Of a DNA stretch of 64,000 nt, positions 3,972-54,069 are shown in pieces. Positions within the stretch are counted from its first letter, which is position 1; each line of letters begins with the position of its first letter. Source of the DNA: Lama glama (Eukaryota); contig CM052816.1 of the NCBI GenBank assembly GCA_028534125.1, forward strand, positions 35,900,001 through 35,964,000, in the 5' to 3' direction. Under the pieces are notes generated by a model, which was not told the origin of the DNA, made no database searches, and saw nothing but the letters and a program-made list of their open reading frames with translations. Made by a program: the position numbers and the translations under genes.

Positions 3972-6900
3972 TCAGCTTCTATTTTGAAAAGAGAATTTTC
4001 ACTTTCTGGGCCAGTTTTTTGCTCGCTTGGGCTATTGATAATGTTCTAAAACATACAAGCTTTCCTGGTTGTAAGAGTCCAGAATCCATAGTTTAGATGG
4101 CCTAATTAGACTTTCCTCAGTGATTCATGTATTTTCCTGATTCTGTACAATTTAACTAAGTCATTATAGTACAACTCATTATAAATGACATGGAAGTTAT
4201 AATTAATCAAGTTTCATGTTTATCAGTAAAATTTACTTTCTAAGAACCATCAGAAATAAATAAAAGAACTAGTTCTGGTCAAATAACCTGAAATAATTTT
4301 CATGTAGGTGTTTATATATAACATATACCATAGCGAAAAATAGCTCAAAGTTCTTTTCTGGGTGATGCTATTTAATAAATGTAAATTTTATGTTAAAATT
4401 CTTTGTTAACTTCTGAGAAGAATAGATACATCTGAAGGATATCTGTTAATTATCCCTTACTCCCCACTTCCTATCCTATGCTAATGTTAGGTTAGTATGT
4501 TGTCAAAATTGTTGCATCACTGGGTACAGAAGCAGTTACCCATTCAGTTTCTTTGAATGAAATCCAGCAGAGAAAATGACTTGAAATAAATACTCCTTGC
4601 ACCTTCATGCATTCCTTGGTTGCTACTGTGGTGCTTTTTGTTACTAATCAGGTCAAGGATGTAGGTTCAGGCTGCATTAGACTAGTTTAATTCCTTTCTA
4701 AGGCTAAAAATGCGTGTTCTGCTTCCTTACCAATGTTTATCTTTGGAACTAATGAAAGATCAGTGTGACTATAGCAGCACAAACCCATATCCTCCCTGGG
4801 GGAAAAAAAATTGTAAGCTCAAGCTCTGTGTCTATCATATTCACATATCTGCAATTAGGACCTAGAATTCTTAAAGGAAAAAAAAAACTAAAAAAAAGAA
4901 ATAATAACGTTCTGAACATATGTGCCTGCCAAGAAAATAGAATAAAGAAAACCTAATAAATTTATATACAAAATTTGAATGCTCATTAATGTAACCCCAG
5001 CCTCCTTTTTCTGCGCCATGGGTCAAGCTTAAGTCAAGAGCAAATCGTTTTATTCTGTCTTCTGTGGAATTTTTACCACCTTAGGTTTTTGTAGGCAATG
5101 CATGATGTTACATAGGAAATAAAGCATATGCTGACTCAGTATTTGGTTCACTGTGGGTTAAAACATCTACTAACATTTAATTTGTACTTCCTGATTGAAT
5201 ATAAGACTATTTTAAACATTGTCTTTTGTGATATGATTTTTGTAGCTTTTCCTTAAACTATGGCATTTCCAGCTCGGTTTTTATGTCGTTATTTTTGTCC
5301 GTGGACTCTGGCCTCGTATGTGTGGTGGAGTGATAAAGCTGTGTTGCTAGGCAGAGTTCTGCCAGGCAGTTCATGCTGGGCTTCATATCTGTCATTGCCC
5401 CACTTTCATGTTTCTATGAGGATGGAAATGAGTTGAGACAGAATATCATTGGGAATAGGCGCATAGTTAAGTGCCCAGGTCTCCTGATTCTCCATTGAGT
5501 CATCATGAGTGTCTCTGAACAGCACCAGTGGTATTCTTGGCACGCGAGGCTCAGCGGGAATAACACTGAAATAGCAAAGATCGAAACCTGCGTTGCTAGA
5601 ATATTCTCCGCTTGCTATCTGACCTTTTTGGTCTTCCCCCTTTGAATATGTGCCTATGCCTCGGTGCCGCTATGGAAAGATCAGGGCTGCCATCAAAAGT
5701 GCCAGGGAGAAGGCAGGAAAGATGTGAATAAAATGAGCAGTTGGTGACATGACTGTATTAATTTTTTTTCAATGTTCAAGGGATTTATATCAGAAACAGG
5801 GGACTTTGACACCGTATGTATTGAAAAAGAATTGAATGATAATTCTCATTTTTCAATAGCAAAACTTAAGAGAGGATTTAAAAAGAGAGGCTTCTTGTGA
5901 CGATTCAATGATAGCATGACAGTTCTGTAAATGTAGAGTTGGCCCTAAATAATTTGCCTTTATAAAGACAAAGTATCATGTTGCATCTTAGTAGTTGACA
6001 AAAATAACCGGTCATTTGCCTTTTCACATAAAGTGTTTGGCTGTATGTATCTGTAAGTGAGCATGATCTTGCAGTTGAAGGACTGTGTTTATTATTAGGC
6101 TTTTCAAAATGTCTGCCGGGCTTTGGAACCTCAGAAAGGGAGGCGGGTGCAGCGTGAGGTTGGTCTGCTCAGCATTTCTCTGTAAATGCTCCTCTCATGA
6201 TATGCCTGAAAACCTCCAATATTATAATAATGCTAATAAAAATGGAAAACTCTGAATTCTTTATAGATGCATAAAGAAGTGTAATTTCTCTGTGACCTGA
6301 ATAACTCTTCGAATCACTGCTCTGGCCTTTTGAAAGAAGGCAGCTCGACTATACTGCTTTGTGTTCCTTTGAATGTCTTGCTATCTGACTGTTTTAAGGA
6401 CCAAAATAATAGAAGTGAATTTAACTCAGGGTTATACTTTGAAGGACAAGTGGGGTTCCCCCCCCACCCGCCCTGCAATTTTTTCCCTTTTCCCAGTCTA
6501 TTGAACAGTGCTATCTAGCCTGGCTTCTTAAATGAGAGGTGATCTTGTTGATGAATAAAATTAAATGATAATACAAATTTTCACTTATTCAGACTCTCCA
6601 CCTTTTGGTTTTGTCCCTTTGAGAATCATAAATTGGATTTGTTATCGCGACCTTTCAAGAGGCACCGCTCAGTCATCCTGTTTTAATCGTTGGCCGGCAG
6701 GGACTGGGGTGGCTGGCAGAGTGCGGGGGCACAAGACTGAGCGCGGTACACTTGGAGGCCTGTGGCCTTGGGAAGCAGGTAAATTCTGGGAGAAATGATT
6801 CTAACAGTGACCGATTCTCTCAGGATGCTGTGGATGGAGCGGGGGACACAGGGCGAGGTGTGTGCGGCAACACAGCCTCTGAGTCCTAGTCGGACTGGGG

Positions 6901-9811
6901 CGATTTGGCTTCCCCGACACGGCTCAGTGTTCGAGGCACTTGCTGTGTTTTAAGCTCTCTTCTGCTTAGGAATTATTTTTCTTGTTTTGACGTGGATCTA
7001 CTACTCCTGCCACTAACGTTAATAACCAGGGGAGAAAGATCAAAGGAGGCCAAGCCCCGGGAAGACTGGAGGAGGGCAGCCTGGCCTGGGCTGGCATGGC
7101 AGACAGTTAGTTTTAATGACCACTTTTATAGGTAATTTTAGTAATGACAGATTTCAGTTTTTGCTTAAATGAATGGAAATTATTGACAGTAAATTTTCAT
7201 TGTTTTTGTTTCTTTGTGCGGTACTGAATGCCGGTGTAAAAACCGGTTGCAGTCATATGAACGGTACAACCAAGCACGTTTTATTAGAAATTTGGAGAGG
7301 ACACCCTTTTAATTACACTGTGTAATTTTAGTTGGTCTTCTTCCAATTTCCTTCTTACTTAATTTAACCTCCACTTGATTATTTGAGATTTCTTGCTTTT
7401 ATGATTATTATTAGCTGCATATAGATGTGTATAGAATATATAAAATCCACTTTTCGCAGGAAGGAATATTACATCCCTGGCTCACAGGGTGAAGAAACCC
7501 AGGAAGTTTTGTGGAGCACCTTTATTGAGCATATCGCAATTAGAAAGCACTGTTTAGAGTTAACTTAAAAAGCCTAACCTCTCCAAATTCACAGAGTGAA
7601 GTGTTCTGTTGGCTGGGTATGTGGACATTCACAGAGACTGAAGTCTTTGCTCAGCTTCTGGAATCAGCCGAGCCCGGGGTGGGCTGCCCATGACCATCAA
7701 GTGTGCTGTTGCGGACGGGAGGGAGGCTGTGGCCACATGGGGCTCTGCAGCCCTTTGTGGAGGGGAGCCCGCGTGAGTGTGGCCGTGTCTCGCCCAGCAG
7801 GGGGGTAATGCCCAGCCACAAGGGTGAAGTTGCCTTCCTTCCTCCTCCATTGCCGAGAGCTGGGTCAAGCCTGCTGCCGGCCGGGCTGGGCCTCGGAGCC
7901 TCCATCCCCTGCTCCAGGGAGCCCCTCTCTCGGTACCCTGGGGCCCTGGGACTGCTGCTCGTGGCCTCCTGGCACCGTGGCACAAAGGGGACAGAAAGAA
8001 CATTCTGCAGAGGGCATCTTCAGTTGAAATAATCAGGCAGAAAGACCTGCCTGCATGCTATATACATGAGTATGTCTGCATTAGGGAGGAGAGCCTAGGG
8101 TTTGAACGGTGTATCTCTATGGTGAATGAGGCTTAACATTTTAAATTGTGTATGAAGCTGTGGGCCACATCCTGGGATGCTGGCTTTGTTTTGTTGCAGC
8201 GATGGCTAGATCGAGTCTCCTAATACAGTTGCTTAAGAGGCGGTACAACGTGTATCACAGTATGGGTTAGAAGGTGCCGAGCCTTTTGGGGACTGAACTG
8301 AGAAACATGTATTCTGAGTGTCAGACAAGACACCTAGAGGCCGGCATCAGGCATTTAGTTTTTGAAGCCCTTACTTCAGTGCAAGTTAGACATTTCTCTA
8401 TTACAACTTGTGCTTCAGAATTAAGTGCAGCAGCAGTGATGTACACATTGCCAGCCCTCTTCAGGCAAGAACGAGGTCTGTGTTCCTTTTGGCTTTGCTG
8501 ATCACTGTTTTCCTCTTATGGTGCTGAATTTTAAACACTCAGAGAAATTTGTGAGCAGATGGATAGTAGATGGCTTGGATGTACAGGCTCTGACAGCTTA
8601 TCTGTATTTTAGTGTGAAGGTGGTGGATTTGGAGAGCGTGGAAGAGAAGGGTTGGGGAGACGGGGAAACGCTGAGGGATGTATAGGTTTGTTTGGCCCAG
8701 GGCTGTTCTTAGATGGGCCAAACACGATAAGCAAGGTGAGTACCTTTTTGACACTGAAGGTTTATTTATATTTCATTTTCTTCTTTCCTGTGTTTCCTAC
8801 CCTTACTCTTCTCCTCCCCTGCACAAACTTTGTTGAGAGGCCAAGAAGAGAAAAAGACAAACTTTTGGATTTTCAGCTGAAAAGATGCAAGATCAGCTAC
8901 CAAATATCATAGTCTTTGTAACTGAGTATTGATTTTAAATGTCACAACAGATCATGTTTTTATTGTTGGCGAGATAGGTTAGTAAAATCTTAAATCCATG
9001 GGGGGAAAATCATTAGTTTTAAAAGTTTGTATGTTAAAAGACTAGAAAGTAAAATAGATAGTATTGTCTTGAAACAGTTTTTTTAAGGTATTGATTGACT
9101 GGGCTCAAACTCCACTGCAAATGTTTGGAGACGAAGAAATGAGTGTGGTGGCATCCCCAGAAGAGTGCGGGCTAGCCACTTCGCTGTTCTGTTTCAGTGT
9201 GTGCGAATGTGTGTCCCTCCCAAGGGCTGGAGAGGCGCACCCCCTCGCCCCTCACCCATTTGTCATCCAAATGTGCTGATATCTGTTATTAGTCCTAGTA
9301 TCTGATTCAGAGTTGTTTTCATTGGAACTTGTGGACAATTTCTTTTAGGACGTAAACTTTATATTGGCTATCACTGTGTGGGTGAAATTTTTAACGTTTT
9401 AAACATAACTTTAGAACTCAAGGCTAATGACAGGATAACCGTATTTATAGTTTTGTTTCAAGTTGGTGTCTATTACTAATATAGTTACAGCACATTAGAT
9501 CTTGTTACTTTTATAAAATGTTAGAAAAACAAAAACATCAATCCACTGAAGATATGAGAATACAGATTTAAGAAAGAAGTTAGAAGTATTTAAATAAGAA
9601 ATTGGCACTGGAAAGAACAAAGTGGGGACTTTTCCCAGCATCAGCAAACCCCAAAAGAAACCCTTTCCTATTCATTGATCTGTAAAGTCTACATTTAAAG
9701 GCTATTAAAGTGCATTGTGCTTGGAGACAAGGAAAGAGGTGGAAACTAGTATTTATAAAGTTCCGAATCTTGTTGCGGGGTATTATTTGCTAGCCCTGTG
9801 AGCCAGGAGTA

Positions 9812-12900: not shown

Positions 12901-15459
12901 TTTCCCATGGTTCATGTGTATCGTTCAGAGTGAGAGCACTGGTCTCCTGAGGTCTGGCCTATTAATCTCTGTTAAGTATAAGTCCTCATGTAACAGAGAC
13001 AGTGGTTTATCCTGTCACTTAGAAAAGCCTGTAAATGTATGTGAAAGTCAGGGATATTTTCTTGAAGAAGCATCATTAATTCTGTGTATTCTTCCCTTGC
13101 TAAGCTAAGAATGGAACTGGGGGGTGGGGTGGAGGGGGCACAGTTCCACTAAGAGGCACACTCTTCGGTACACCTTAAACCACAACCTTCCTTAGGGTAG
13201 CAATTCTTCTAGAGTGTTCAGGAAGGAGGAGTTCTGCCTAAATCTGCTTAATCCGTTAAACAATGAAACAGTTATAACTGCTCTCATTGCAAATGGTTCT
13301 AAAATGTCACAGTCATTACCAGACATGGTCTGGTAGAGTATGGTGAGTTTTCTCAATGAACCAGGACCCTCATTAAGAACACTGGTTATTGAACTCTTTG
13401 GTAATACTGGAATGTGTTCGGGAGCCTTTGAGGTCTGTAGGTTTAGCCTGACTTTTCTATGATATTTCCCAGATGGCTGGTTCTCCTGCCTCTTGCCAGT
13501 GTCTAGGGCTTTTTATCCCAAAGCCCACAGCCTCTGGTCACTGCACTCCTCTAATTAGTTTTTTTTTCCCCCTTCTTTTTGCCCCCTTTTCATAGTTTCT
13601 ATTCTCCTCTGCCACTTTTAAACCACTAGGAGCCAGCTCTGACTTCCAGAATCTCAAATTGGTGTTTCTCTCCTTTTTCTGTTTATAACCGAGGATCAGT
13701 TTGAGGGTTTCGGGTTGAATCCAGATAAGAATTACCTTGTAATTAAGTAGGGTTATTAGTCCTGTCCACAGCCTGGGAGGTGTGCGGTGGGGAGGGGCAG
13801 GGGTAACCACCTTCCTGTTAGAGAGTACGTATGTGGGCTTTGCAGTTGCTGTGTTCATTTCGCTTGAATGTTCCTTTGTTTTCTTCCTGAGGTTCTGGGA
13901 TTCCTGACTAAACGTTGACCCCCAAACAAGAAGCAATTCCACTTTCCCTTCTAAAGGCAGGCAGTTCACAGGCTCTGATTTCAGTCTTTGCCCACAGTCT
14001 CTTTGCCTTTTTTCTTTCTTGGAATGGTTATTTGTTAGGACTGTACTTCTGCATACATTAACAGGCCTGTTTAGAAGTAACGAAGCCCCAAACCCTGCCC
14101 CCTCGTCCCTCAACAATATCTGGAATTATGTTTCATAAAAGGCTGGGTTTTCAGTAGTCAAGTGAAAGTGAAGTGTGTCGATTTTCCAAATTTAACTCCT
14201 GTATTAAATGGAGACTGTGAAAGGGCTACTTATATTGAACATGTCTTTGCTTTGAATTCCATTAATAATGTGTGCATTTCCTGAGTGATCATAAATTCCC
14301 ATTCCTTCTTTGAGGTCACATCTCTTTCCTAAGATTAACCGGAGTGTTAAATTCAGAGTAATGCTCATTGTAAGTATTCAGTAAATAAAGGAAAATTTAA
14401 ATACATGCATTAAGGCTAGAAAGGGAGAAAATAATTAGTTCCTGGAAAGCTGTGAATTACTCTATCCAAAAACATAGGTTTTTGAGAAAGCATCTAATGT
14501 GTCTAATGAGTATTTTGGCATGCATGCTTTATTGTCACAATGAGTCATCATCATGCAGTCACCTCCTCAGGGCTCCAGGTTACCCCCACAAATTCATCTA
14601 GCTTTTTTTTCCCCCTTCCTATTTCTATAAGGTATTAATCAAAAGTAAAAGGAGAAATAGTAAAAACATGGTTTAAAGAACTTAGAGCACCTGGAATAGT
14701 GTCTTGCGACTAGTTAAGTACTGAGTTCACACACTCACCCTTAGGAAATGTAGTTAGTGTCAGTTTCAGGCAATCCTTTCTGTATTTAAATCTTATGAAC
14801 TCCTCTTTAAAAAGAAGATCATTGCTTTATCCTTCTAATCGGCTGAGAAGTTTGCCCTGTTATTTTTCAGTCTTCTTGAGATTAAATGATACAGATGTCC
14901 TAACCATGTTTACTTTTGTGCACTTGATTCATTTAGGTTGATTTTTCAAAATGGTGTTTATTTCTACAGTCCTGAGAAGATGGTGTAGCCCAGTGCAATT
15001 CTGAGCAGAGACTGCTAGTGAATTACCTTGTGCGTCTCTAATGCTATGCCTTGAGGTTTATATTACCTTCCTTTGAGATTTCCCCTCTGTCTGTCCTGCC
15101 AGAAGACCTAAGAGCTGAGATCGAGGTGGTCCTGCATTGTGAGTTCTTTGCTTGCCAGCAGGACAAAGTTTCCCTTCCTTGGAATGTACTACAAATAGTG
15201 TTTGTTTCTGGTAATAATATATTGTGATTGTACTTCCTGTGAAATGATGTAAACCTCTTTAGAAGTCACTTTTAGACTGAGCATAAGCCACCCCTAGGGG
15301 TAGTGAGTTCTCTAAGTTTGCCACATATTTTATAAAGACTGCTTGCTTTTTTTTTTTTTAATTGAAGTAAAATAATTTGTGTTGGTGGGAGGAGGGGAAG
15401 TCCTGAGGTCAGGACTGGAAATAGTGATACAAAACAGAAATCGCAAATGTTTCCATCAA

Positions 15460-15610
15460 TCCCTTCCCTGCAGCCTACTACACCCCAGTATCACTGAACT
15501 GTTGCAGGTTCCCCAAAAGGCCTGTGGTCTTTAGTCCCCCATGCCTCCATGCAGGCCAATCCTCCTCTTGCAGGCAGAGACTCGGAGAGAAATTTATCTC
15601 CTCATAATCA
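15460..15610 (+). mobile_element. L2 LINE fragment
   Basis: cactgaactgttgcaggttccccaaaaggcc...atgcctccatgcaggcc resembles the L2 3' region; highly diverged. Confidence 0.4.
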
Positions 15611-16124
15611 TCGGAGGATCTGATTTCTTAAACACGGTGAAGCTCTGAGAGGCTATGCCAAGCAAACAGCTGGATTGCACACAGGTGGCCCTTGAGCAAA
15701 ACCTAACATCGCTCCAGGCTCTTCTGATAACTTCCTCTCTCTTGACACGCACACTAGTAATTGCTGGCTACTCAGTGACCTTTGTTGGAAACCCAAGGGT
15801 GTCCGTTCCCCCAGGGTCCCTGGCCTTGGCCCACATACCAGACCCTCCCAACCCAGTTGGGGCTGCTGCTTCTGTGTCTGAGCTCCCTTGGGGTGGCCTG
15901 GAGATACCCTGCTAAGTTGATGCCCCAAACCTTCCCCGCAGCCCCTTGGGCACTGCTCAGAACTGACCCTCCCCCATGTACCTAGGGCTGGGCTGGCCAG
16001 ACAAGGTGACATGACACCATTCAAGACTACTTGCTTTAATTTCTCGTATTTGCCAGGCTTGAAGGGAATAAGAACTTGATCATCACTTTTCTCAGCTTTC
16101 TCTCTTGTAGACAAAGGCACTCTA

Positions 16125-16240
16125 ATCTTTATAGGTCTTCTGAGCCTCTCCCTATCTTGATCACAGTAATTTCTCTCCTCTGGACTGTCTTCAGCTCTTT
16201 AGGTGGTAGAGTCCAAATTTAAGATGGAATACTTGAGATT
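16125..16240 (-). mobile_element. CR1/L3 LINE fragment
   Basis: ttgatcacagtaatttctctcctctggactgtcttcagct resembles reverse-complement CR1 ORF2 3' sequence. Confidence 0.35.
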
Positions 16241-16558
16241 TGTGCATTAAGAAGGAAACACTTTTAACAACAGCTGATTACTTTGGGCTATGGTAGTGTA
16301 TGAGTTTGCAGTCTGTAGTGAATAGTCATCAGTGGCCAGCAGTTCCTCTTCTTGGGTTCTGACACCCTGTAGCACGTGAATCATCCTCCAAATGTAATTT
16401 ATATTCATTTCCCTTAAATGCCCACCATTACAGTTGCCCTTCATTTTAGCTCATGCCACTGTTCTGTCTCTTCACGCAGCCCTGTGAAATCTGCAGTTCA
16501 TCTATTGTCAACTTCGCGTTGATTCCCGTTTTGTCACTTCTAAACCTTGGTGCAAATT

Positions 16559-16938
16559 CACTTCCTCTGGGAAGTAGAGTAGCCTGCGGTGAGCTTTGAC
16601 TCACACTGATGACTCACTCATCATGCAGATGACGTCACGAGGACGTCAGCATCCAGTTTCTTCTGCTCTTCTGGGTTTTGTTGCAATTATCATTTCTTGA
16701 CTCTATCTACTTCATATTTCTTTTTATGAGTTTGGAATGTATTCAAGAGATAGGGGAAAGTCCCGAAGGGTAGCTGCTCTTTGAACTATAGCAGACACGT
16801 TCAGGGTTTTCCAGATGTGTTCCTGGAAGCAACTGCCACTGAGTGTTTGCAGGGTACACCCGAGGAGATGCATTTCTGGAAATGGGAGCTTTCACTGCGT
16901 CTTCATAGCAAAGTACCTACAGGAAGATTTTCCTGGAA
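16559..16938. promoter_or_regulatory. Candidate stimulus-inducible (inflammatory/myeloid-type) enhancer
   Basis: PU.1 site AGAGGAAGTG (- strand, 16559-16568), TGCGGT RUNX (16585-16590), TGACTCA x2 (16597, 16610), TGACGTCA (16630-16637), GACGTCA (16642-16648), TGTTGCAAT (16679-16687), GGGACTTTCC (- strand, 16755-16764), TTCCTGGAA x2 (16820, 16930). Confidence 0.6.
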
Positions 16939-17119
16939 ACACTGGTAATTACTCTTCTTTCCTCAATAAATCTCCAAAGCTCTATAGGTAGCTACTTTTC
17001 ATGAAGTATTTGATGCTTAGTCCTTTAGACTTCAGTGATATTTATAATCACTACATATTATCAAAAATTTTCTCTTAACTTCTGGTATCTGTAGAACTTC
17101 TATCTGATTTTACGTTTTA

Positions 17120-17560
17120 ATAGTTAATGCATTCAGGAGGTTAAAAAAAATCAGCATGATATAAAAAGATACATATTAAGTTTGCCCTCACCCTGTCTCC
17201 ATCCCCCTGGTCTCCATTATCCTCTATAGAGAGAACCTCTTTTATTAGTTTTTTGGGTACTCTCAAAAATACAGGCACATCCCAAGATAGATTTTTATAA
17301 TCCCTACTTTCTTACTCAAAGCATATTATGTGCTGTGTTCTATACCTTGCTTTTTAAATTGGAGATTTAAATATGGGAATTCCATATCAGAACATAGAAA
17401 GCTTCCTCATTATTCTTACTGCTTCGTACCATTTGATTGTGTGGATGTGCAGTCGTTTATTTAGGTGGTCCCTAGTGATGGACCCTGGGGTTGTTTGCAG
17501 TATTTTTCTATATAAATAATGCAATAATGTATAACCTTGTGCACACATCATGTCAAATAT
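17120..17560 (-). mobile_element. Ancient L1 (L1ME-like) 3' region
   Basis: Typical antisense L1M signatures: ttccatatcagaacatagaaagcttcctcattattctt, gatggaccctggggttgtttgcagtattttt, ataatgcaataatgtataaccttgtgcacaca. Confidence 0.75.
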
Positions 17561-18419
17561 CTACCTACTGATCTTTATCCTGTTTCCTTACCCGTTTCCT
17601 TGTAGACCTCATAAGCCACTGTAAAACTGAGTCAGCATGATGTTTTTATCTGCTTTAATATAGCCACAGTACTTCCTGAGTTGGGAAGCAATGTCTTGAA
17701 CTTCAGGATGCCCCCAGTCCAGAACTCTTGGGATTCGTTTGAGTCCTAGTTCTTTGGGCATCTTTAACTTAGTGAATTGAGCTAAAAGACAGTGAATATA
17801 ATTTAGATGATGTATGCCCTATTCAGATAAGCTAAAGAGTTAAACTTGGTAGTATTTGCCATACAATGAAATATTAACATTTTAATGAGATTATTGGCTC
17901 TTTAGAGAAAAAGAATTAAAAAACGTTACATTGCAGTTTAAGTACTGAGAATTTAAATGTAACTGGATGAGCAACAAATTAGTGTCATAGTACACTGGTC
18001 AGGCAGGGTTCATAATTCTGATTCTAAATTCTGACTTTCATGGACCTTTTATATGTTGATCTCTATGTATTTATGGATTCAGAAGTTGGTTTGTGTGTGC
18101 ATTTATAATACATAGCCTCCCAAAGGAAAGATTGTAAACTTTTCAGGTGAATAATTGTTTTATTCCCCAGTCTTTCTTTTTTCTTGTATTTCCCATTGTA
18201 CCAAGAGCCTGTGGTCCATTATGAATCTTGCTTTTTCTGTATTTGAGCTTATCTAGTCTTTCCAGAATTTAATTTCCTCCATTCATGGATAAAGTCCGTT
18301 TATTGCTTATCGTCTAACCTATTGGAGTATTCACTATCCCAGTCAGTTTTGGTGTCAGAGCCAGTCACTATGGAGAAGATGTTTAAAATGATGCAGGGGC
18401 CAGGGCAAGACTCAGGTAA

Positions 18420-18585
18420 GGAAAATTACTCAACTCCTCTGAGTTAAGTAATTTACAGGGGCATCTCTTCTGTAAAATGTGAGTGATAGCACAGTGTCCC
18501 CCTCCAGGTTATTGAGAGGTGGATAGTGGCAAGGCATGTAGTACCTAGCATGGTGTTTGACACGTGTGAGGCGCTCGGTCAGGAG
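18420..18585 (+). mobile_element. MIR SINE fragment
   Basis: tctgtaaaatgtgagtgatagc...ggttattgagagg...tagcatggtgtttgacacgtgtgaggcgctc matches the MIR 3' half. Confidence 0.7.
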
Positions 18586-19609
18586 CAGAAATAGTAGATG
18601 TTCTACATTATCTCCTACATGTATTACTTGATGAGTTTCTGTTGTCTTTGAGGACTCGTAAGGATTATTGTAAATGGTTGAATAAATTATTCGAATAGTC
18701 TTTAATGATTTTCTTATTCAAAAATAGGAAAATGACCGTGGAAGTTGGTAGAGATCTGTGTTAGTGAACTGTGATTGTTTGTGCTCTCTAGTTTGTTTAA
18801 TGCTTCTCCGTTGTTCTGGCAGTTGATTAGGCATTCTGCGGGGGGATGCACTTCTATCAGCACATTATCAGCAGCTGAAGAATTTTCGGTTTTCTGCTCA
18901 CTCAGTGCTTGTAAAAATTGAATATATATCGTTTCCCCTTTATCATGTTGAAAATCTCTGGTTCATGGTCTGTTGAAATTCATCTTGTTATATTCAAAAT
19001 GCATCTCCTGGAAGCAGCGACAATGCACAAGGCTTGAGTACACTTAATTCGCAGTATTTTTGTTTCAGTTCCTTTTCTGCACTTTTTACTTGGAGATATT
19101 TTGTTTTAATCTGTTCTTCCCCTTTTCCCTAGCCAAGTTTTTTGTTTGTGAAAAGTAATATTTTTCCAGGCTATATTCTGTGTGCTACAATATGGCTGTG
19201 TTTCAAGATGCTCTTCAGCTCTTGCATCCAGCTACTAATTCTGTGCTCTGAAAAAACTAGATGATGTTTGTGGTGATGGGTCAGTGCCAGTGGAAGGAAA
19301 TAATTTTGCGGAAGATGAATCCATTTCCAAGTAATGTTGGCTCAGTAGAAGCTTACGTTGGAATTTGTTAGGCTGTCTGATAGAAACCAAATTTGACCAA
19401 GACAAGGTTGTATGTATATGTCTTTGTCTACTCATGTATACCTTATGATATGTGTGTATATATATGTGGTAAAATTTCATTTTGATAGTTAACGTTTAGG
19501 CTTTAAAAGGATTAAAACTAGTAGCTTTAATTCCACTTAGTAAAATTTTTTGGTGGGTGTTTTAAAACATTTTAAATCAAATTTTATAATAACAAGCTAT
19601 TTTCTGAAA

Positions 19610-19790
19610 TAGTTTTTACATGCCTGGCTATATTTCATTGAATCATTGCACCAGTCCTGAGACAAGTATTATTAATCATAATTTACAGGTGTGGAAATAA
19701 GCTCAGAGAAGTTAAATAACGTACTCAAGGCTTCAGAGTTTAATAAGTGCCAGAGCTCGATTTTGAGTCTTGGAGTCCTGGGGTCCTGAT
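19610..19790 (-). mobile_element. MIR SINE
   Basis: tattattaatcataatttacaggtgtggaaataagctcagagaagttaaataacgtactcaagg matches the reverse-complement MIR core. Confidence 0.8.
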
Positions 19791-20414
19791 CTCACTGATC
19801 GAATTTTTTGATTGATTTGTCATAGTGAAGTGACAGTTAGATTTCACTTTAGGACTTATTTTGGGGGGTTTTCTCAGAATATAAAATCTTAGTGGTGACA
19901 GAAATAGAGTCCCTAGTATTTCCCCCTCATCTGCTCCGGGCATGGAGGAGTGTGGTCACAACCTGCTGATTCCAGATATCTCATTGCCAGGGGATAGACA
20001 AATTACAGTTTTACAAGTTGCATAGCTTTTCAAACATTTTGAGGCCAAAGATAAATTTGGGTGCTCTTCCAAATGATCAAAATTATTATTGATAAATTAG
20101 TAAAAAAAAAAAGACATCTGTTATCACTTTCTACTGAGAAAATTATGTTTTCTTCTAACAAAATAGTTTTAAGTGAAATTGTAGCTTTGCTTCTTACCCT
20201 TGCATTTTATTTCTCAGTCTGGATTTGACAAGCAGTAGTAGAAAGCAGGACTTATTTTTTTCCTAGACAACTTAAAAAAAATTAGTATTTGGAGTCTTTT
20301 GATTATCTCCTGCTAGGAATATGTCTTTTTGCTTGTTACCACCTGGAAATATTTCCTTCTTCACTTTTACTTTTTAAGGTTCATGTATTATTTTCTCTCA
20401 GGTGTCATTCATGG

Positions 20415-20548: not shown

Positions 20549-22528
20549 TTCTGTCCGTGCTGAGGGGAGTAGGTGTGACTTGTAGCCTTGCCTGGGTTGG
20601 GGGGGAGTTACTCAGAAGTGAACTCTTCTCTCAGTAAGGTTTGTAATTTTTGAGAAAGTGGAGTTCATAGTAAATTAATTTTATCTTCCCCTGCTCAGCT
20701 TCCCCCACGTGAGTTACTGCTGCTTTTTCTGTAAAGGATACTTACTGAATAATAGATTTAAAAGGGTACATGGCAGTACATAACAACAGAGCTTCATGAT
20801 CGGGTGAGGTGATTTCAATTATTAGGGTTTGGTATAGGCTTATGTCAAGTGTATCCATTTCATAATGAGCCCCCAGTTGTATAGTGAGTCCTGCCTTTAT
20901 TAAATTGTACAGAGAAATTCCTTTGTAAAGTATGACTGACTTTTCTTCCTCTTAGGAAGACAGATTAATAATTTTTCACTATTAATGAGGTTCCATCTGC
21001 TCATCCGGCCTTCCATTCTAAAGGTTATACTTATTACCATATTCACAAACCAACCCAACTGTGTAATCGAAGTTTAAAAAAAAATTTTTTTTAAACCAGA
21101 CTCCATCTTGGTTTCTATCATGTATTTTTTGGCTACTACAGAGCAGGACAAGTGAGTCCACTTCCTCCTCCTTCCCTGTTTTCTCAGGTTCCATTTCGTT
21201 TCTTCTTGTCAGCCAGCCATCTGCCACAAGTCACAGAAATTAAACTGCCTGATACAAGGGATAGTCGTAAAAGAAGGAGCGCACCCAGCAGTGCCATTCT
21301 GGCCAGAAGTCCCCTTTGGGATGCGGGTCCCGGAAATGAGCAGAGGAAGGGCCTCCATGTTACCTGCACATAGGGATGGAGACTTGCGTTCCCTGCTTCT
21401 GTGTTCTTCTCATTTCAAGCAGGGCACTTCGGCATCTGTGCTGAGCATCTGGCAGGGCACGTCTGCGGGACACCGCATGAGGGGAAGGATGAGGAGACGG
21501 TTGGAAGAAAGCAGGCCCTGACTTGCTAGCTAAAAATACGAATCAGTGAAAGTTCCATGCCACAAATTGAGTAAAATTTGATGATAGGGGATTACTGGAA
21601 CATTTTATTAACTTGGGTTGTGCTTTAAAACATTAACTTTTGAAAACAGTTGAATCTCCGAGCTTATGTGTAAGGGTTTGGCTTGTGGATGGTGGTGATT
21701 ACAGCAGCTAGTGCTGGTATCCAAACCCCGTCTGTCACACCCTGCAGTGACCGAGCTCATTTTTTCCTCTCTCTGCGTCTCCTCCCGCGCCCCTCCTGCC
21801 CCACCTGCCTTCCTGCTTTCCTTCCTTTTCTTGGCCCTGAGCCCCTAAGGACCACCAGGTACCCCTTCTTGTTACCCGTCATTATAAGCCTGACGTAGCT
21901 TTGGTGACTCATCCAATCGCTTTATTTAGAAGGTAAGTACGAATAAGTGTCAGTTTACGTAATCTTTACCAGTCCACCTTACCTTCCAAATTGGTCTTTG
22001 ATAAAAGAGCCTTTCAATCTTCCACACTATCACAGATGTTAGCATTTTCAGTACGGGTGAAGCAGATTATATCAAAGAGGCAGAGGTACCCAGGCTTACA
22101 GTATTTGAAACAAGATTCCTTTTTTCTATTCAAGTTGAATTGTTCGAAGAGCCAGTAACAGACAGCAATGAGAGGACGAGCACATACCTGGTTTTGTCTT
22201 CTCTCTTCACTAATCAAATCACCTTTTTTTTTTGGAAGCCAGAATTTGTCAGTAGGCAGAATGTAGGAATGTAGTTCTACTTTAGTAGCTTAAAACAAAC
22301 GAACAAACAAAAAGTGGATTATAAATAACTGAAGGATTTTCAGGTGGAAATAGAGTGATAGCTGGGTCAGGAGAGGAATTAGATCTGAGCTGTCCTGGGA
22401 GACCGTGGGCAAGTTTGTAATTATTTGGTGAGGGGGGTCCTTTATAGCAACATCCCGCCTTTTACCCTGCTTTTTTCTGAGTTAGCATTTTCTTTCTGGT
22501 GGTTTCTTTTTTCACTTCAGTCCCAGAT

Positions 22529-22713
22529 CTGTGGTTCTCAGCACCAGCTGCATGTTTGCATGCCTGGAATCACCTTGGTGGGGAGGGGAGGACTTGCTGG
22601 GATCCCACCCTTGGAGAGTCTGATTTGATTTGGATCAGGTGAGGCCTGAGTGGTGGTGGTTGTTTTAATAGGTCTCCAGGTGATTCTAATGGGAGCCAGA
22701 ATGGGAGAACCTG
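22529..22713. mobile_element. hAT-Charlie MITE (MER5A1-like)
   Basis: Starts ctgtggttctca; internal ggaatcacct, tctgatttgatttgg, ccaggtgattctaatgggagcca; ends gagaacc. Internally palindromic, as MER5 elements are. Confidence 0.75.
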
Positions 22714-24450: not shown

Positions 24451-27385
24451 AGTCTTGTTTGGAGGAAAAAAAATGCTTTGTCAGCCAAGTCAAGTATGTA
24501 TGTACTGAGAATTTTTGTGACCCCTGATCTTTTATGGCTCTGTTCTCTGCTCCCCACCCGACCCCAAATCCATGGAAACCATTTGAACAAGGCAGCTTAC
24601 TTTAAATATATTCTCAGCACTGAGTATCGTATGTGAAGTAATTAAAAATCATTGAAACAACAGATGGTAATAAAATATGTACAATGATAGATTCACTTCA
24701 CACATAGACTCCCCTCTTGACCCACCCACACAACTGTTAAAATTTTTACACTAAGAACCAAATGGGCTACAAGCGTCTGTGATTATTGGTGTGGAAAATG
24801 CTCATGAATATGGGCACATAAACTATCCCAATGAGTATCTAAATGAGTTCTGGTCCCATTATTTCTCAAAACAATTTCTGAAAGCACTTGTGGTTGCAGT
24901 GAGCGTAGTCCAACCGTATGGCCTTGGAACATGCGAGATTCTTGCCTTACGTGTACATGCCATTTACTTTTAAGATAAGATCATGCTGGTGAATAGAGAT
25001 CCCAGATCACTGACATTTGACACAGAACTATAAATTCTCTTCCTCTGGATAGAACTCATTTGGAAGTATGTCAAGAATGTCATTCTTCCTAAGGTTGTGG
25101 TTTGGAGGGCAAAGAAGGTTAGAATATAGGAAGGAACTACCACTGTAAGAGAGGAGATGAGTGATTCCTGTTTCTTGAGCATTTTTAGGAAAAGTCTTGA
25201 CAGCCTTCCTGAGTCATTTACATTTGTTCTCTTAAGTGCTTTGATAGAAGGCATTCTTGGGGTACAGGTGAGGAAGCCTAGGAAGGGAAGCCTAATTTGT
25301 CTATTCAAGATGACTATCTCCAGTGAGAGCGAAGTTGACATTCATTAAGGCATTTCTGGGCCACCTTAGCTGGGGCTACCTCTTCCTTCTGCTGGAACAG
25401 ACTGTCGGGCTGCGGTGTGTAACCTGGTGGGTGCAGAACCACGCCTGGAGCCAGGGTGTGGAATGTGAATAGCTGTGTTCCCCAGTCTATGTGAATGTTG
25501 TGTCAGTCACATATTTGCATAAAACAGGGTAATACAAAAGTAATTCATGGTCAAGAGAAGGCAGGAGCATGAGGGAATTTCTTTCCTTGCAGGGTTTATA
25601 GAGGGAGAAATTTAGGAAATTGAAACTGTAAGCAGAGAACAACACAAGTCATTTAAGTTTATTAGCAAGGGGTAAAACTCAAGCAAACAGATGCCTTAGT
25701 ATCTAAGATAATTACTTCCACAGAAACCCCTCTCCTCTTTGGGGATCAACATAAGTAAGCAAAGGAGAAGGTAAACAAAGAGCTTTAAAGAATGATCTCT
25801 TCTGGACTTAAAAAAACAAAAAACAATGATGATAAAATACGAAAGATACAGGCAGATTGCCTCCTTTTCATTTCAAGCCCCATTTGGGAGATGTATCTCT
25901 TTGCAGGAGAAACCTCATGTAGTTCAATTTCATTCTAGAGTTTTAAAATATTTACTATGGAAAGGAGTATTCATTCTCTTTACTGGGTGTGTGTGTGCAT
26001 GTGTGTGTGTGTCTATGTCTATGTTTATAATTAGGTTTTCATTTGTTGGAGCCTATTTAACTCAATTGGACGTTATAAGAGCTCTTGATTGTATCTTTTC
26101 CCTCTTACTTGTTTTAGGTCTTTTCAGTTGCTTTTTGCAATCTGGATAGGGGAGTATGGGAATTAAACTCAAAGGACTGATTCTGGTTCTTTAAGCAGTT
26201 TGGGGACTTAGTCTATGAGAAAGTGAAATCTGTTGCTTATATTTAGAGTTTGTGGCTCTCTGTAGGCTTAATTCATTCGTCCTGGTCCTCCTTGTCAAGT
26301 ATAATTTGGTTGGCTTAACATGCCTAAATCCATGACCATCTGCATAATTTCTCTTTGAGTTTGTTCTGTTTGCCCCAAATTTGCAGCCTTTTGAAATGGC
26401 AAGTCTGTCGTCTGTCCCTAGACTCTACATATCACTCTCACAAGACCACATACCTGGTAGGGGCTCAGGAAAAACTGTCAACAAGGTTGGAATGTTGGAA
26501 ATCTTTTTTAGAGCAAGTTGAGGACCTTGGTACCTTTTATAGGAGCTGGAGTGGAATGCACGCTCCTCACTTTGCACTGCAGCCAGAGCACCTGTTCAGT
26601 GAGAGGAATCAGCTAAATTACTAGATGTAATTGATGTTTGTGCAAAACATAGAACATTTGTTTTTCTCTCCTTGTGGTTAATGCTCAGCTTGATAATTTA
26701 AATGAGGCTTTTCCCTCTCTCTTCCCATCCCTCTCTACATTCTGTTGAGCACATTTTTTTCCCTCTTAGCCTTTGTCTCCTGGGCACTAACAGTTGTTAA
26801 ATGTTTCTTATGGGGGATAATATATTTAGGAAACAATTTCCATTCAGGATTGTCATGCTGCCTGGCCCCTTTCTACCACACAGGTGATGAAATGCAGATG
26901 CGATAGTTACCTTCCGCAAGTCGAGTCATTTTAAAGTGTATGCACGTAATACATAGTTTTTAAATAATCTCGGCTAAGAGCATAAACTGGTCTATGAACA
27001 AGGATGGCCTGATGAAGCTCGCTTCCCTGTAAACATGGCCTGAGCGGAATCAGCCAATTTCAAGGCAGATCAGTGTCAGTGCAGAGAGACCAGGATAAAT
27101 AGCCAACAAACATCTCTTGAAGAAAAGAAAAATCATGAGAAGATCCTCTTCTGGGACACGAGGATAAAGTTGAGGTGACCAGAATGGGCCTCCCAGGTCT
27201 GTATTCTGACTGTGCAGCAACGTGCCAAAAGGCCTAGTGGCTGCCTCTGTTGTTGTTTTGTCCGTTTTTAATAAAAATAAAATCTAGTTGTTTGAAAAAC
27301 TGATTCTGACCATGTAAGCAGCAAGTAGAATTTGAACACACTTCCCAGACAGGGATTTGGCTTGTCTAATTTCTTGCCAACCCAT

Positions 27386-27569
27386 TTATTTATTTTTTAT
27401 TTATTTTCTATTATAATTTATTAAAATTTCTCTCGTTTTCCTTTTCCCTACATCTTTTTTTTTTAATCAGTTGAAGTACAGTCAGTTACAATGTGTCGAT
27501 TTCGGGTGTACAGCACAATGGTCATGCATATACATACATGTATTTGTTTTCATATTCTTCTTCATTGAA
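27386..27569 (-). mobile_element. Truncated young LINE-1 3' end with extra downstream segment and second A-rich tail
   Basis: L1 terminus 27455-27569 is collinear with 52288-52400. TSD core gccaacccat (27376-27385) / gccaactcat (27570-27579), followed by TTTTT/AAA. Confidence 0.8.
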
Positions 27570-28374
27570 GCCAACTCATATTTTTAAATGAGTTACTGCA
27601 TGAGCCAGGGAAGGTCATTGTTAAGTTTATAGCTTCATCCTTGCTCGTGGTAAGTCGTGCAGCTCTCCCAGTTTGTCTGGCTTTGATCACTTTCTCTGGT
27701 GCATGTTGGTTTGCAGCCTGATGCTTCACATCATAGGGCCTGGGGTTAGTCTAGTGCACTGGGGGGTCCACATGTCTTCCCTTAGCACCTCCTGCTGCCT
27801 GGATTGTTTGGCTACTTGTTAGAGTAGCGACCCCAGAAGAGAGGAACTGTTATCATATCTTAGAATTGTAGGTGACAAAGAGAGAAAAGTGATGACACTG
27901 TCTTACAGATACAGGGCGTAATCACTGTTACATACACAATTTCAAGTGTAAATGCCTGATTTTCATACCTCTGAAAACCTTACATATTATTTCTGCCACT
28001 TTTCCTCTCCTCCTTTCCCCCAGCATACAAGTAGGTCAAGAAGTCTTCTGAGAGTCCTGAAATAACTTTCAGGTTTCTTTGGAGGCCAGGAGGCTTCCAC
28101 TTTCACTGCTTCCCGAATTTTCCATCAAAAGGAGGAGAAGAGGGCAAGCAGAGAAGGGAAGTGCATGGTTTGGTTAAGCCTGTTAGCAAGCATTTTTCTG
28201 TTTTATACATGTCAGTCATTTAAGTGGCTCTTGACTGCTATTATGATTTTACTTAGAAAATTAGCCCTATGGCCCCTTATTTTCCCTTGCCTTCTGCATT
28301 TTGCTAAGCCACAGGTGAAAATAAATGGGATCTCTAAAAGATTTGGTGTGTCCATTTAGTCTGCATTGAGGTAC

Positions 28375-28615: not shown

Positions 28616-30355
28616 TTCACTTTATAGAATAGGTGTGTTCCTTTAAGATTGGTGCATTTCTGTAAATACTAGGCCATTGGAGCTATTTTCCCATTGACTT
28701 GCATCATAAAATTGAAAGCCACATTTAAACCACTCCCTGCATTTAAAATGTGCACATTAATGGAGAATAATTATTTTGGGGAGAGGGGTAGTAAAAATAG
28801 TCATCAAGTAAAAACACTCCAGGGGTGCCTGAAATACAGTAGCACAAGGTACATTCTCTCGGGTCTGGATGCGTGGGAGAGCGCTGTCCTACATTTCTAC
28901 ATTCTGTTCGTGGTTCTAAGCCCTTGCTCAATCTCGTGCTTTTAGCTGTTCTTTCTAAAGATGGATTTATGAGGTCTGCTATTTCAGCTGCTTACTCAAT
29001 AGGCCTAATTAGGGGTGGGGATGTATTTGTTTACCATCTTTGGTTTCGTTCTTTATAGGAAAGGCTAGCTAGCGTTTCCTGATTTCTAGGTATGAAGTGC
29101 CTTTAAAAACCATTACTGTGAGCAGTTATTTTCATAATTGCAGATCTTTATGTAGTGAGTTTTTTTTAGGCAGGCTTTCTTCTTAATTAAGCATGATTGA
29201 GTAAAACAAAAATACCTGAATATGAGCAATCCCATGAGTCAGCCAAAGAATTCGGAAACAAAGGAAAAAATACTGTAAATATAATATTTTTCAGTCCGGT
29301 GGTATGAGAAGTTGCATGTTAAAAACAAAACAAAATAAAACAAAAAACTGCACTCACTCCAGCATTAGTTTGGGGATTTTGATGTCAGTCTGATTTTTCT
29401 CTTTGAGTGATCTGCTTTACATAGTAGTCTTCATTTCAGCAGTTTTACTTACATGCTTTGCAAAGCATTAAACATACCAGTGAACTAAACTGTCCCCAAA
29501 ATGTAGTTTCATTTTATATCATACAATATCTTCCACTGATTTTATCACCAACCAGATGTTCTTATGTAACTTAACTTATAACCACAGTTCTGAAACATTT
29601 AGGGCTAATTTCTACTATGGTACTGTCTCAACTTCTCTCATGGAAAGATAATTATCTTTTTCATATTTGAGGACTGACTTATTTTAAAGGGTTGACTAGC
29701 TCAATGAAATCTACCCCACCCCCACTTTTTGCCGTTAGTTCACGTGTCTTGGATAGTGGATGTAGTACCTGATTTGGTGCCACACTGTGATTCATCCCAA
29801 GTTCATTATGAAAACTGTTTATTTGTAATTTGCAGCCACGAAAAGAATGCTGTTCAGTTTTCCTACTTCTCCGTATGGCTTAATATTATTTAAAATTGAT
29901 CAGCACCTTAACTTGATAACCAAACTACCGTTCTGTCTTTTGAAATAATTTATCCTTCCAGATCCCAAAACTGCTTTCCTACTTGCCTTGGACTGGCTGT
30001 TGCTTTTAATAGAAATGACAAGACAGTGAGGTACCCCTCTTTGCCCTCTGTGTGGTACAACAGGAATAAACCAGTGGTGGGTATCAGTGAGAGGGTCCTT
30101 GGTTTTCATATTTTACAGAAGTTGACTTAGAATTTCCATTCAGTAGCTCTTATTATAAGTGAGAAGCAAGAAACTGACCCCACTGCATCTTGCTGTGGGT
30201 ATTGCATGAAACTCTTCTTCAAATCCCAGTTTGGTTTTGTCCACATCTGTTGGAGGATGACTTTTCCCCCTGATCAGAGAACATTCTCCATCTGATGTGC
30301 CCTTTTTTTCCCTGCAGTAGAATAACCAGAGGACTAATAATTAACCATGATGGCT

Positions 30356-30449
30356 TTTTTTTTAATTGAAATATGGTTTACAATGCTGTGTCAATTTCTG
30401 GTGTACAGCATAATGTTTCAGTCATACTATACGTACACATATTCATTTT
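30356..30449 (-). mobile_element. Truncated young LINE-1 3' end (~95 bp)
   Basis: Poly-T + aattgaaatatggtttacaatgctgtgtcaatttctggtgtacagcataatg. TSD catgatggct (30346-30355) / catgatgact (30450-30459). Confidence 0.85.
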
Positions 30450-50700: not shown

Positions 50701-52287
50701 TCTCTTTTGAAAAGATTTTATCATCAAAGAGAATGAACTATTCCTTAAGGCCTGTTTCTCCAAAGAAGTTAGAATCTTTTTTTTTCACCCAGAGTTGGGT
50801 TCATCTTTAGGAAAACTTTTGCATCCATCTCATGACATCATTGTATGATTGCAGAGCCAAAGGGTGATTATCTCCACATCCCGCTGACTTTCATGTTGGT
50901 TTGCGAATCCATGGAAAAGGACACCTTTCCCCCTCACATTTTACAACACAGTCAGCCCAGTAATTTAATGCTGGTTCTTCCAATATAAATATTACATTAT
51001 GAATATAATTTCCCATTATTACCGCAAGAAATTTAGCTGGATACTAAGAATAATTCGGCTTTATAAGGTCATATACCAGTATGTTCTTTCCAAACCAAAA
51101 CATTAAAAATGAAGGGAAGTTCTTCTTTTTTTATGTCTTGTATTACATTAAAAATTTCTCGCTGGAGGAGTCAAACTTCTGCACAGTGTGCACTCAGCAG
51201 AGGCTGTTACGGTGGTCTGCTCAGTCTACTGTGGATTTGGTAATAGTTTTTTAAAAAATATTCATGCTCACTTATTTCCTGTGGAATCCATTCATTACTA
51301 TATGTCTAATTCCGATGTTTTATTAGCCACGGGACAGAGTAGAATACACCAATTACACTCTATTCCAATTGGATTTCAAGCCAAAATCCCATATGGAAAT
51401 ACTGTGTGTGGGAGAGAGAGACACGAGTCATGGTGAGTGCAGAGACAGTGGAGCGGGGAGACTGAGAGATGGGGGAGGGGGAGCAGTGAGAGAGACAGAA
51501 AGGATGGAAGGAAAGAGTTAGAATGATAAATGAAAATCTAAAAAGGTGGGCTTCATTTCACTGGTATTAATTTGGTAAATTATCCATAATTTATTAGAGC
51601 TTGTAAACATTGTGGTACAAGGTACATTTTTTTGCTCTGTTAGTAATGAATTGCTGCATCATTAATTTTGTCAAGGGATCAAGAAACAACATTGCTGAGC
51701 TTGAAGAGAGCTCCTAGCTGAGTAGAGTTAGGTCTGAAGCTCTGGTGTAGCTAAGGAAATTGAGCAGTGAATCCACAGGACTGTTTCCTGACGGAAGAAA
51801 CCGCCTCTCACGTGTGGCGGGGCGCACTGACCTGGGTGGGAAGGAGGCTGCATGGTCCAGTCTGCCTTGGGGTCCTTCTGTTTCACTTTGCCACTGTTCT
51901 GGCCCTCAGGATGCAGATGGCTTCATCCTGAGGAGGGGACTGGCTGAAGTATTGTAATATATTAACGTATCTTTTCCTTACTTTCAAGTATGCTTTGAAG
52001 CCATGGGTAAAAAAGATACACCTTTAAAAAAAAAAAAAAGTCAGTTGAAATAAAGATTATAAAAGGTGAGGATATTTTAGGGATAATTTAGTAGAAGAAG
52101 TCAGCGTATCTATTTAAGCATTATATTTGGCTTTTAGTGTCCTGGTAGCCATGGGAAAGGAAAGACCTAATTATGTAGTTGTCATTTTGTCATGACCAAA
52201 AGATGCACGTGACATGGCTCTGAATATAAATGGGACCAGGTAGGATAGAGTTTGAGTCTTGTAGTTCAGATTTTATGGCTATTTCTT

Positions 52288-53509
52288 TTTTTTAAATTGA
52301 AGTACAGTCAGTTACAGTGTGTCAGTTTCTAGTGTACAGCACAGTGTCCCAGTCATGCACATATACACACATAGTCATTTTCATATTCTTTTTCATTAAA
52401 GGTTATTACAAGACATTGAACATAGTTCCCTGTGCTATACAGAAGAAACTTATTTAAAATCTGTTTTTATATGTAGTGACATTTATAAGTCTCAAACTCC
52501 CAAACTTAGCCCTTCCCATCTTCTTTCCCCAGTAACAATGATTATTTACTATGTCTGCAAGTCTGTTTGTTTTGTAGATGAGTTCATAGTGTCCTTTTTC
52601 TTTATGTTCTTTTTTTTTTTTTTTTTTTTTACATTCCACACATGAATGACAATCATGGTATTTTTCCTTCTTTTCCTGGCTGGCTTCTCTTAGAATGAGG
52701 ATCTCTAGGTCCATCCATGTTGCTGAAAATGGCAGTATTTTATTCTTTTTATGGCTGAGTAATATTTCATTGTGTATATATACCATGACTTCTTTATCCA
52801 GTCATCTGTTGATGGACATGTAGATTGCTTCTCTGTCTTGGCTATTGTATATAGTGCTGCTATGATCATTGGGGTGCATGTATCTTTTTGAATTAGAGTT
52901 CCCTCTAGATATATACTCAGAAGTGGGATTGCTGGATCATATGGTAGGTCTACTTTTAGTTTCTTGAGGAATCTCCATACTGTTTTCCACGGTGGCTGCA
53001 CCGAACTGCATTTCCATCAGCAGTGTAGGAGGGTCCCCTTTTCTCCACACCCTCTCCAGCATTTATGGTTCATGGATATTTGAATGATGGCTGTTCTTAC
53101 TGGTGTGAGGTGATAACTACATTATAGATTTGATTTGAATTTCTCTGATAGTGATATTGAGCATTTTTTCATGTGCCTATTGGCCATTTGTATGTCATCC
53201 TTGGAGAATTGCTTGTTTAGGTCTTCTGCCCATTTTTGGATTGGGGTATTTGATTTTTTGTTGTTGTTGTTATTAAGTTGTATAAGCTGTTTATATAGTC
53301 TGGAAATGAAGCCTTTGTTGGTCATATTATTTGCAAATATTTTCTCCCATTCTGTAGGTTGTCGTTTTGTTTTGCTTATGGTTTCTTTTGCTGTGCAAAA
53401 GCTTTTAAGTTTAATTTGGTCCCATTTATTTATTTTTGTTTTTATTTCTATTGCCTGGATAGATTGCCGTAGGAGAACATTGCTAAGATTTATGTCAGAG
53501 AAAGTTTTG
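52288..53509 (-). mobile_element. 5'-truncated LINE-1 (~1.2 kb: ORF2 C-terminus, 3'UTR, poly-A)
   Basis: The ORF track gives L1 ORF2 peptides ([61 protein letters not shown]) in different frames. Poly-T at the left end. Degenerate TSD tatggctatttctt (52274-52287) / tacgtctgtttctt (53510-53523). Confidence 0.95.
52650..53509 (-). pseudogene. Frameshifted LINE-1 ORF2p C-terminal remnant
   Basis: Homologous peptide is split across ORFs 53122-53529, 52705-53001 and 52454-52786. The endonuclease and RT core are absent. Confidence 0.9.
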
Positions 53510-54069
53510 TACGTCTGTTTCTTATTCATGACCCTCTACAGACCAAACCCATGGCTGTGAACGGTAGCTCAGAGAAGACATTTCAGCAGTAAAGTTAAGG
53601 CAGGTTGCAGTTTTCTAGGTGCTGAGATGGCCCAGGTGTGCTTAACTTAGTTATCTGGCCGGAAAAAGTAGAGTCTGGTAACCTAGAGATATGAACAGGA
53701 TTGTATCCCTTACTCTGCACGTCTACTGTGAGATGCTTCACTGGTTCTTCATAGGACTAGTTAATTGACAGTTAAATCCTCATCAGTGTTTAAAGCAGTT
53801 ATTCTCTGTTGGTTGAAAAATAGAGCCTGTTCTTTAGAAACCTGCTGTTGAGGTAGCCCTCCCATACAGAACTACAGCCTCTCAGGGTCCTTAGAGCTAA
53901 GCCTCCAGTGATGCCCTTAGTGCCTCGCCTACAGGATTCTGATCTCAGGGTGCCTCACCTCAGGCTCAGTCTAAGCACCAGCTGTGATGGTGGATGAGGT
54001 CTGTCCCTGCTGGGTTATAAGGATGTGGCTGGGACAGGGGCAGAGAGAGGAGCCCAACTCTAAGCCAAC

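Follow-up and report, generated by a model that had tools for sequence, protein, structure and literature searches.

A dense cluster of inducible-factor motifs in intron-like DNA of Lama glama as a candidate stimulus-responsive enhancer

Stimulus-regulated transcription factors bind regions that are kept accessible by lineage factors, a scheme in which NF-kB, AP-1, CREB, STAT, PU.1, and C/EBPbeta take part (available text of PMC6719622). In the macrophage enhancers that are primed by PU.1 and C/EBP and induced by LPS or cytokines (Ghisletti 2010; Heinz 2010; both via the available text of PMC6719622), PU.1, C/EBP, NF-kB, AP-1, CREB, and STAT sites lie within a few hundred non-coding bases. The number of such elements is large; in macrophages, a single study mapped 19,417 intergenic enhancers that were positive for PU.1 (PMC6719622, same text). 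A related network was described in breast epithelial cells, where NF-kB, STAT3, and AP-1 act jointly and TEAD and C/EBP motifs accompany them; in the available part of that paper, NF-kB motifs were not enriched at YAP/TAZ sites (PMC8463077). Furthermore, FOXL2-bound enhancers of mouse Efna5 were reported to carry H3K27ac and to drive Efna5 in fibroblasts and ovary (accessible part of PMC5314486).

The stretch analyzed here, called the window, comprises 64 kb of Lama glama DNA, and the module of interest occupies positions 16559-16938 within it. The module has the PU.1, C/EBP, NF-kB, AP-1, CREB, and STAT sites of the macrophage enhancers, and it shares the AP-1 pair, the STAT palindromes, and the kappaB, C/EBP-type, and TEAD-type sites with the epithelial network. 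The macrophage enhancers were defined by PU.1 ChIP peaks and H3K4me1 (available text of PMC6719622), whereas the module is known from sequence matches alone. It also differs from them in having no ISRE/IRF site, for which the pattern scans gave no match in the module. The PU.1-type decamer, in turn, falls outside the epithelial scheme as set out in the available part of PMC8463077. The Efna5 enhancers are forkhead-driven and unlinked to the module, as far as the accessible part of PMC5314486 describes them, and a scan with 30 patterns returned no forkhead match in 16500-17000. Most likely, the module adds one more element to a class that is already well known and very large. As a class this matters little, as mammalian genomes have thousands of such enhancers. 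The module, in which 380 bp contain several full-consensus sites, is unusually clean for its kind, and it would be a good reporter substrate for combining cAMP, NF-kB, and STAT inputs.

Motifs were named and matched by general consensus patterns on sequence only. The pattern scan of the window recovered every motif named by an earlier sequence-only reading of this DNA, each in the place where that reading had put it (Table 1). A stretch of 210 bp contains the PU.1 decamer, the full CRE, and the kappaB decamer, each of which is found only once in the 64 kb. Strict GAS palindromes occur at three places in 64 kb, and two of these are in the module. The AP-1 sites are not rare in the window (13 observed against 12.5 expected), and two of the 13 are inside the module. 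A full CRE with a second GACGTCA nearby had been described with a spacing of 12 bp; the pair is present, but its in-register distance is 11 bp, which is about one helical turn. The flank of the PU.1 decamer lengthens the match by two bases, and decamer and flank together presumably resemble an ETS-IRF composite with one mismatch. We likewise take the 3' flank of the second CRE-like site to be similar to a Maf half-site, and the C/EBP-type site to be similar to a C/EBP:AP-1/ATF heterodimer site. In its layout, the module has ETS and bZIP sites in the 5' half (16559-16690) and signal-only sites (kappaB and two or three GAS) in the 3' half. The E-box upstream may also belong to it.

Table 1. Motif matches in and beside the module, in window coordinates ("new" marks sites absent from the list of the sequence-only reading).
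Feature	Position	Strand	Remarks
Palindromic E-box	16373..16378	.	180 bp upstream of the module; seen by eye
PU.1/SPI-type ETS decamer	16559..16568	-	1 copy in 64 kb
Second ETS core	16570..16575	+	back to back with the PU.1 decamer; 37 such cores in the window, hence weak; new
RUNX-type hexamer	16585..16590	+	57 in the window, chance level, uninformative
AP-1 site 1	16597..16603	.	pattern match
AP-1 site 2	16610..16616	.	13 bp past AP-1 site 1; pattern match
Full palindromic CRE (CREB/ATF)	16630..16637	.	1 copy in 64 kb
Second CRE-like site	16641..16651	.	1 mismatch; 7-mer at 16642-16648; local repeat comparison and pattern match
C/EBP-type site	16679..16687	+	non-palindromic; fails the strict C/EBP palindrome pattern
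TEAD-type site	16733..16740	+	17 copies in 64 kb, 11.6 expected; weak alone; new
Canonical kappaB decamer	16755..16764	-	1 exact copy in 64 kb
GAS palindrome 1 (STAT1/3/5; BCL6-type)	16820..16828	.	pattern match
Third GAS-like site	16873..16882	.	shorter spacing; about midway between the GAS palindromes; 9/10 identical to GAS 2; new
NFAT-type core	16927		overlaps GAS palindrome 2; new
GAS palindrome 2	16930..16938	.	sequence identical to GAS 1; overlaps the NFAT-type core

For the cluster score, 30 consensus patterns weighted by rarity were applied to 400-bp windows across the 64 kb, and 150 shuffles that kept the dinucleotide content within 1-kb blocks served as the null. The 400-bp window at 16541 ranked first among the motif clusters of the 64 kb, with a score of 13.01 compared with 8.93 for the runner-up; the sequence-only reading had called the module the strongest non-random signal in the window. 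That reading had also proposed a comparison with shuffled sequence, and this came out in its favor, since none of the 150 shuffles reached 13.01 (the shuffle maxima averaged 7.51 and went up to 11.17). With eight immune motifs, the module scored 11.06 and the shuffles peaked at 6.38, so that again 0 of 150 shuffles reached it. The module is therefore denser in motifs than shuffled sequence yields. The clustering of lineage-factor and signal-factor motifs beyond chance, by which PU.1-primed enhancers are characterized, was found here with a panel of 30 motifs drawn up after the earlier finding had been read, and its C/EBP pattern covered the variant present, so that the shuffle result is optimistic.

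These figures bear on a chance origin, in which the cluster is a post-hoc pick of short motifs from a vast sequence and has no regulatory role. The Gumbel fit for the broad panel gave a tail of ~7e-4 per 64-kb window, which by arithmetic corresponds to some tens (~20) of chance clusters in a 2-Gb genome, and to more with a tuned panel; post-hoc selection is only partly excluded. The whole-window counts of AP-1, GAS, kappaB, and C/EBP sites, which are at or below expectation in the 64 kb, and the absence of a CpG excess would also agree with chance. However, no shuffle reached the score of the module, the gap to the next real window is wide, the motifs make a coherent set, and real enhancers far outnumber ~20 per genome. 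We therefore regard a chance cluster as unlikely. The tail value of 7e-7 for the eight-motif panel was not relied on, as it is circular and extrapolated far past 150 shuffles.

The retained CpGs that had been offered in support of the enhancer reading did not hold up. The module contains 8 CpG (observed/expected ratio 0.41) compared with 5.2 expected at the window rate (P = 0.15), and the whole window has 40.5% G+C and a CpG ratio of 0.27. Among the 168 tiles of the same size, 16 hold at least 8 CpG and 24 match or exceed the ratio of 0.41. Moreover, four of the eight CpGs belong to, or overlap with, the very motifs on which the finding was based. CpG retention as a sign of an enhancer was accordingly rejected for this module; most enhancers are CpG-poor, and CpG retention is a supporting sign only.

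The module had also been called non-repeat. This stands as far as the 64-kb window goes, against which alone it was tested: self-BLAST of 16000-17600 (E <= 1) did not turn up a further copy of any portion within the 64 kb, and none of the five tandem arrays of the window is in the module. Long terminal repeats (LTRs) are rich in sites of this kind, and the MER41-borne interferon enhancers are a precedent for motifs carried by a transposable element. The motifs of the module could have been brought in the same way by a lineage-specific LTR or MER-type relic, co-opted or not, in an area that does contain repeats: the segment at ~17130-17560, directly downstream, looks by eye like an old L1 3'-end relic, which we take it to be. 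On the other hand, the lack of a second copy in the window and of tandem repeats, together with nothing LTR-like by eye, makes a transposon-borne origin very unlikely. An origin by tandem duplication was rejected, as the module has only local repeats of 9-14 nt. Three related L1 3' ends were seen on the - strand at 27456-27570, 30351-30430, and 52282-53540, the last with ~1.2 kb of ORF2-like sequence; these dispersed L1 3' ends are presumably of camelid type.

The explanation that we favor, and consider fairly likely, is that the module is an ordinary mammalian enhancer: intronic, functional, and responsive to stimuli. Its architecture is best read as a putative AP-1/CRE/C/EBP core with added NF-kB and STAT inputs. 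Dimers of AP-1, CREB/ATF, and C/EBP, and PU.1 where it is expressed, would hold the 5' half open. After stimulation, NF-kB (through TNF, IL-1, or TLR), STAT3/5/1 (through cytokines), and phospho-CREB (through cAMP or p38) would bind, and the bound factors would boost the transcription of a nearby gene through looping, with the host gene as the likeliest target. The proposed binding, opening, induction, and looping follow from the established scheme of stimulus-regulated factors at regions opened by lineage factors (available text of PMC6719622). A minor promoter is a further possibility.

The sequence-only reading had assigned the enhancer to myeloid cells. The density of the cluster and its non-coding, intron-like context support a putative inducible enhancer; for the myeloid label, the PU.1 decamer is the sole lineage pointer. 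The RUNX hexamer, which had been counted as a lineage element, is present at chance level (57 copies in 64 kb). The PU.1 site by itself hints at myeloid or B cells, and the other motifs would also fit epithelial, stromal, glial, and granulosa cells. The epithelial-stromal set of AP-1, STAT3, NF-kB, TEAD, and C/EBP motifs is present in the module, with a TEAD match that is near chance when taken alone. Since the motif set without PU.1 acts jointly in breast epithelial cells (available part of PMC8463077), a myeloid label is too narrow, and the use of the module is probably not confined to one lineage. An enhancer opened by PU.1, restricted to myeloid or B cells, and silent elsewhere would explain why an exact PU.1-type decamer, single in 64 kb, stands at the edge of the cluster together with a C/EBP-type site, and it would agree with the macrophage scheme (available text of PMC6719622). 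Yet one motif carries this restriction, the remaining motifs are not tied to a lineage, the module includes a weak TEAD-type site, and no title on ephrin-A5 induction in myeloid cells was found among the matches listed. Such a restricted enhancer is improbable compared with a stimulus-responsive enhancer used in several lineages.

The earlier placement of the module in an intron is supported by its context. No coding exon was recognized among 158 stop-to-stop frames of at least 70 aa and the splice-site exon candidates, L1-like pieces apart. A Pfam search matched 0 of 28 selected frames, not counting a candidate that contained an internal stop and had been dropped; the two L1-like fragments in the set also went unmatched, so the sensitivity of this search is low. 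Rfam gave 0 matches. As frames, exon candidates, Pfam, and Rfam showed no recognizable match beyond the L1-like pieces, an explanation by coding sequence or structured RNA was rejected. The + strand has a TA skew of +0.076 and a GC skew of +0.055; when the window is cut into 16 blocks of 4 kb, T exceeds A in 14 of them. Introns that are transcribed from the + strand show such an excess of T over A and of G over C, and the window would fit as part of a long intron of a + strand gene.

By synteny with provisional anchors, we assume that the host interval lies between CAMK4 and CHD1, in reversed order relative to human chromosome 5. Linear interpolation over 13 anchors with assumed human coordinates gave 107.54 Mb, presumably inside EFNA5 intron 1. 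Local scale factors vary from 0.49 to 1.0 in this interpolation; on the same assumed coordinates, the position shifts to 108.06-108.25 Mb, within FBXL17, if the local scale is set to 0.75-0.8, and it comes to lie beyond EFNA5 at a scale of 0.6 or less. Both genes would, on these coordinates, read on the + strand of the window. In our own estimate, which depends on these provisional anchors and assumed coordinates, EFNA5 has a slightly better than even chance of being the host gene and likeliest target, FBXL17 is a serious second candidate, and another gene is unlikely. MCC, KCNN2, and TNFAIP8 were dropped as hosts in view of the CAMK4 and CHD1 synteny anchors. FER was dropped as well, since on the assumed coordinates it would be on the - strand and would need a scale near 1.

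Searches of other material were also made. The AP-1/AP-1/CRE spacing was found at 0 loci in metagenome contigs, and the other DNA stretches compared held 0 look-alikes of the module; both searches are insensitive for mammalian introns. Among the 24 sequencing runs listed for 14000-20000, three RNA runs from two studies hold 0.41-0.46 of the words of this region and three more hold less than 0.1. Another 14 of the 24, under three organism codes, hold 0.94-1.00 of the words (13 guessed to be DNA and one of unknown kind). As these are word matches and RNA runs may hold DNA, the runs do not count as evidence here.

EFNA5 is reported to be induced by FSH in rodent granulosa cells (cited from other work in the available text of PMC6197718) and in reactive astrocytes after stroke (cited from other work in the available text of PMC11421637). 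If EFNA5 is the host, both inductions would agree with inputs from cAMP and cytokines outside the myeloid lineage. A role of the module as the conserved EFNA5 enhancer that responds to injury, cytokines, and gonadotropin is quite unlikely on present grounds. If true, it would account for the rise of ephrin-A5 in reactive astrocytes after stroke, where ephrin-A5 blocks the sprouting of axons, and in FSH-stimulated granulosa cells, and it would offer a single non-coding target to switch off the induced ephrin-A5 pool while sparing developmental expression. The module would matter more as an inducible control element of EFNA5, and no such element was found among the literature matches listed. These matches, mostly papers outside subscription, likewise described no inducible intronic enhancer of EFNA5 or FBXL17; supplements or ENCODE peak tables may well contain the orthologous site. 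A search of paper text with strings from the locus matched one short string in 18 papers, and none of the 17 titles listed was relevant. An intronic variant of FBXL17 is associated with carotid wall thickness and is unconnected to the module (available text of PMC8844072).

Several other features were observed in the window. About 2 kb upstream of the module, at 14439-14560, the remaining strict GAS palindrome of the window (14439) has an AP-1 site (14541) ~100 bp away, and a word of 11 nt directly past this AP-1 site is found again directly past AP-1 site 2 of the module; this segment is possibly a satellite module and may be chance. At 17580-17690, 0.7 kb downstream of the module, an ETS core (17671) accompanies an AP-1 site (17628) that has a Maf/NRF2-type extension; this motif window ranks eighth, inside the shuffle range. 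The second-best motif window (25441-25840, score 8.93) is also within the range of the shuffle maxima. A patch richer in G+C and CpG at 6400-8050, whose tiles hold 10-15 CpG, includes a palindrome of kappaB type (6452) and, at ~6778, a sequence resembling a splice donor, and is a possible weak promoter or second enhancer. Another CpG-richer patch, at 21660-21940, has an AP-1 site at 21905 and, after it, a splice-donor match at 21933 that is the strongest on the + strand of the 64 kb; this is possibly an alternative first exon or chance. The best-scoring exon-like segment, with acceptor and donor, was 22521-22638; it had no Pfam match, and we take it to be part of an old DNA-transposon relic.
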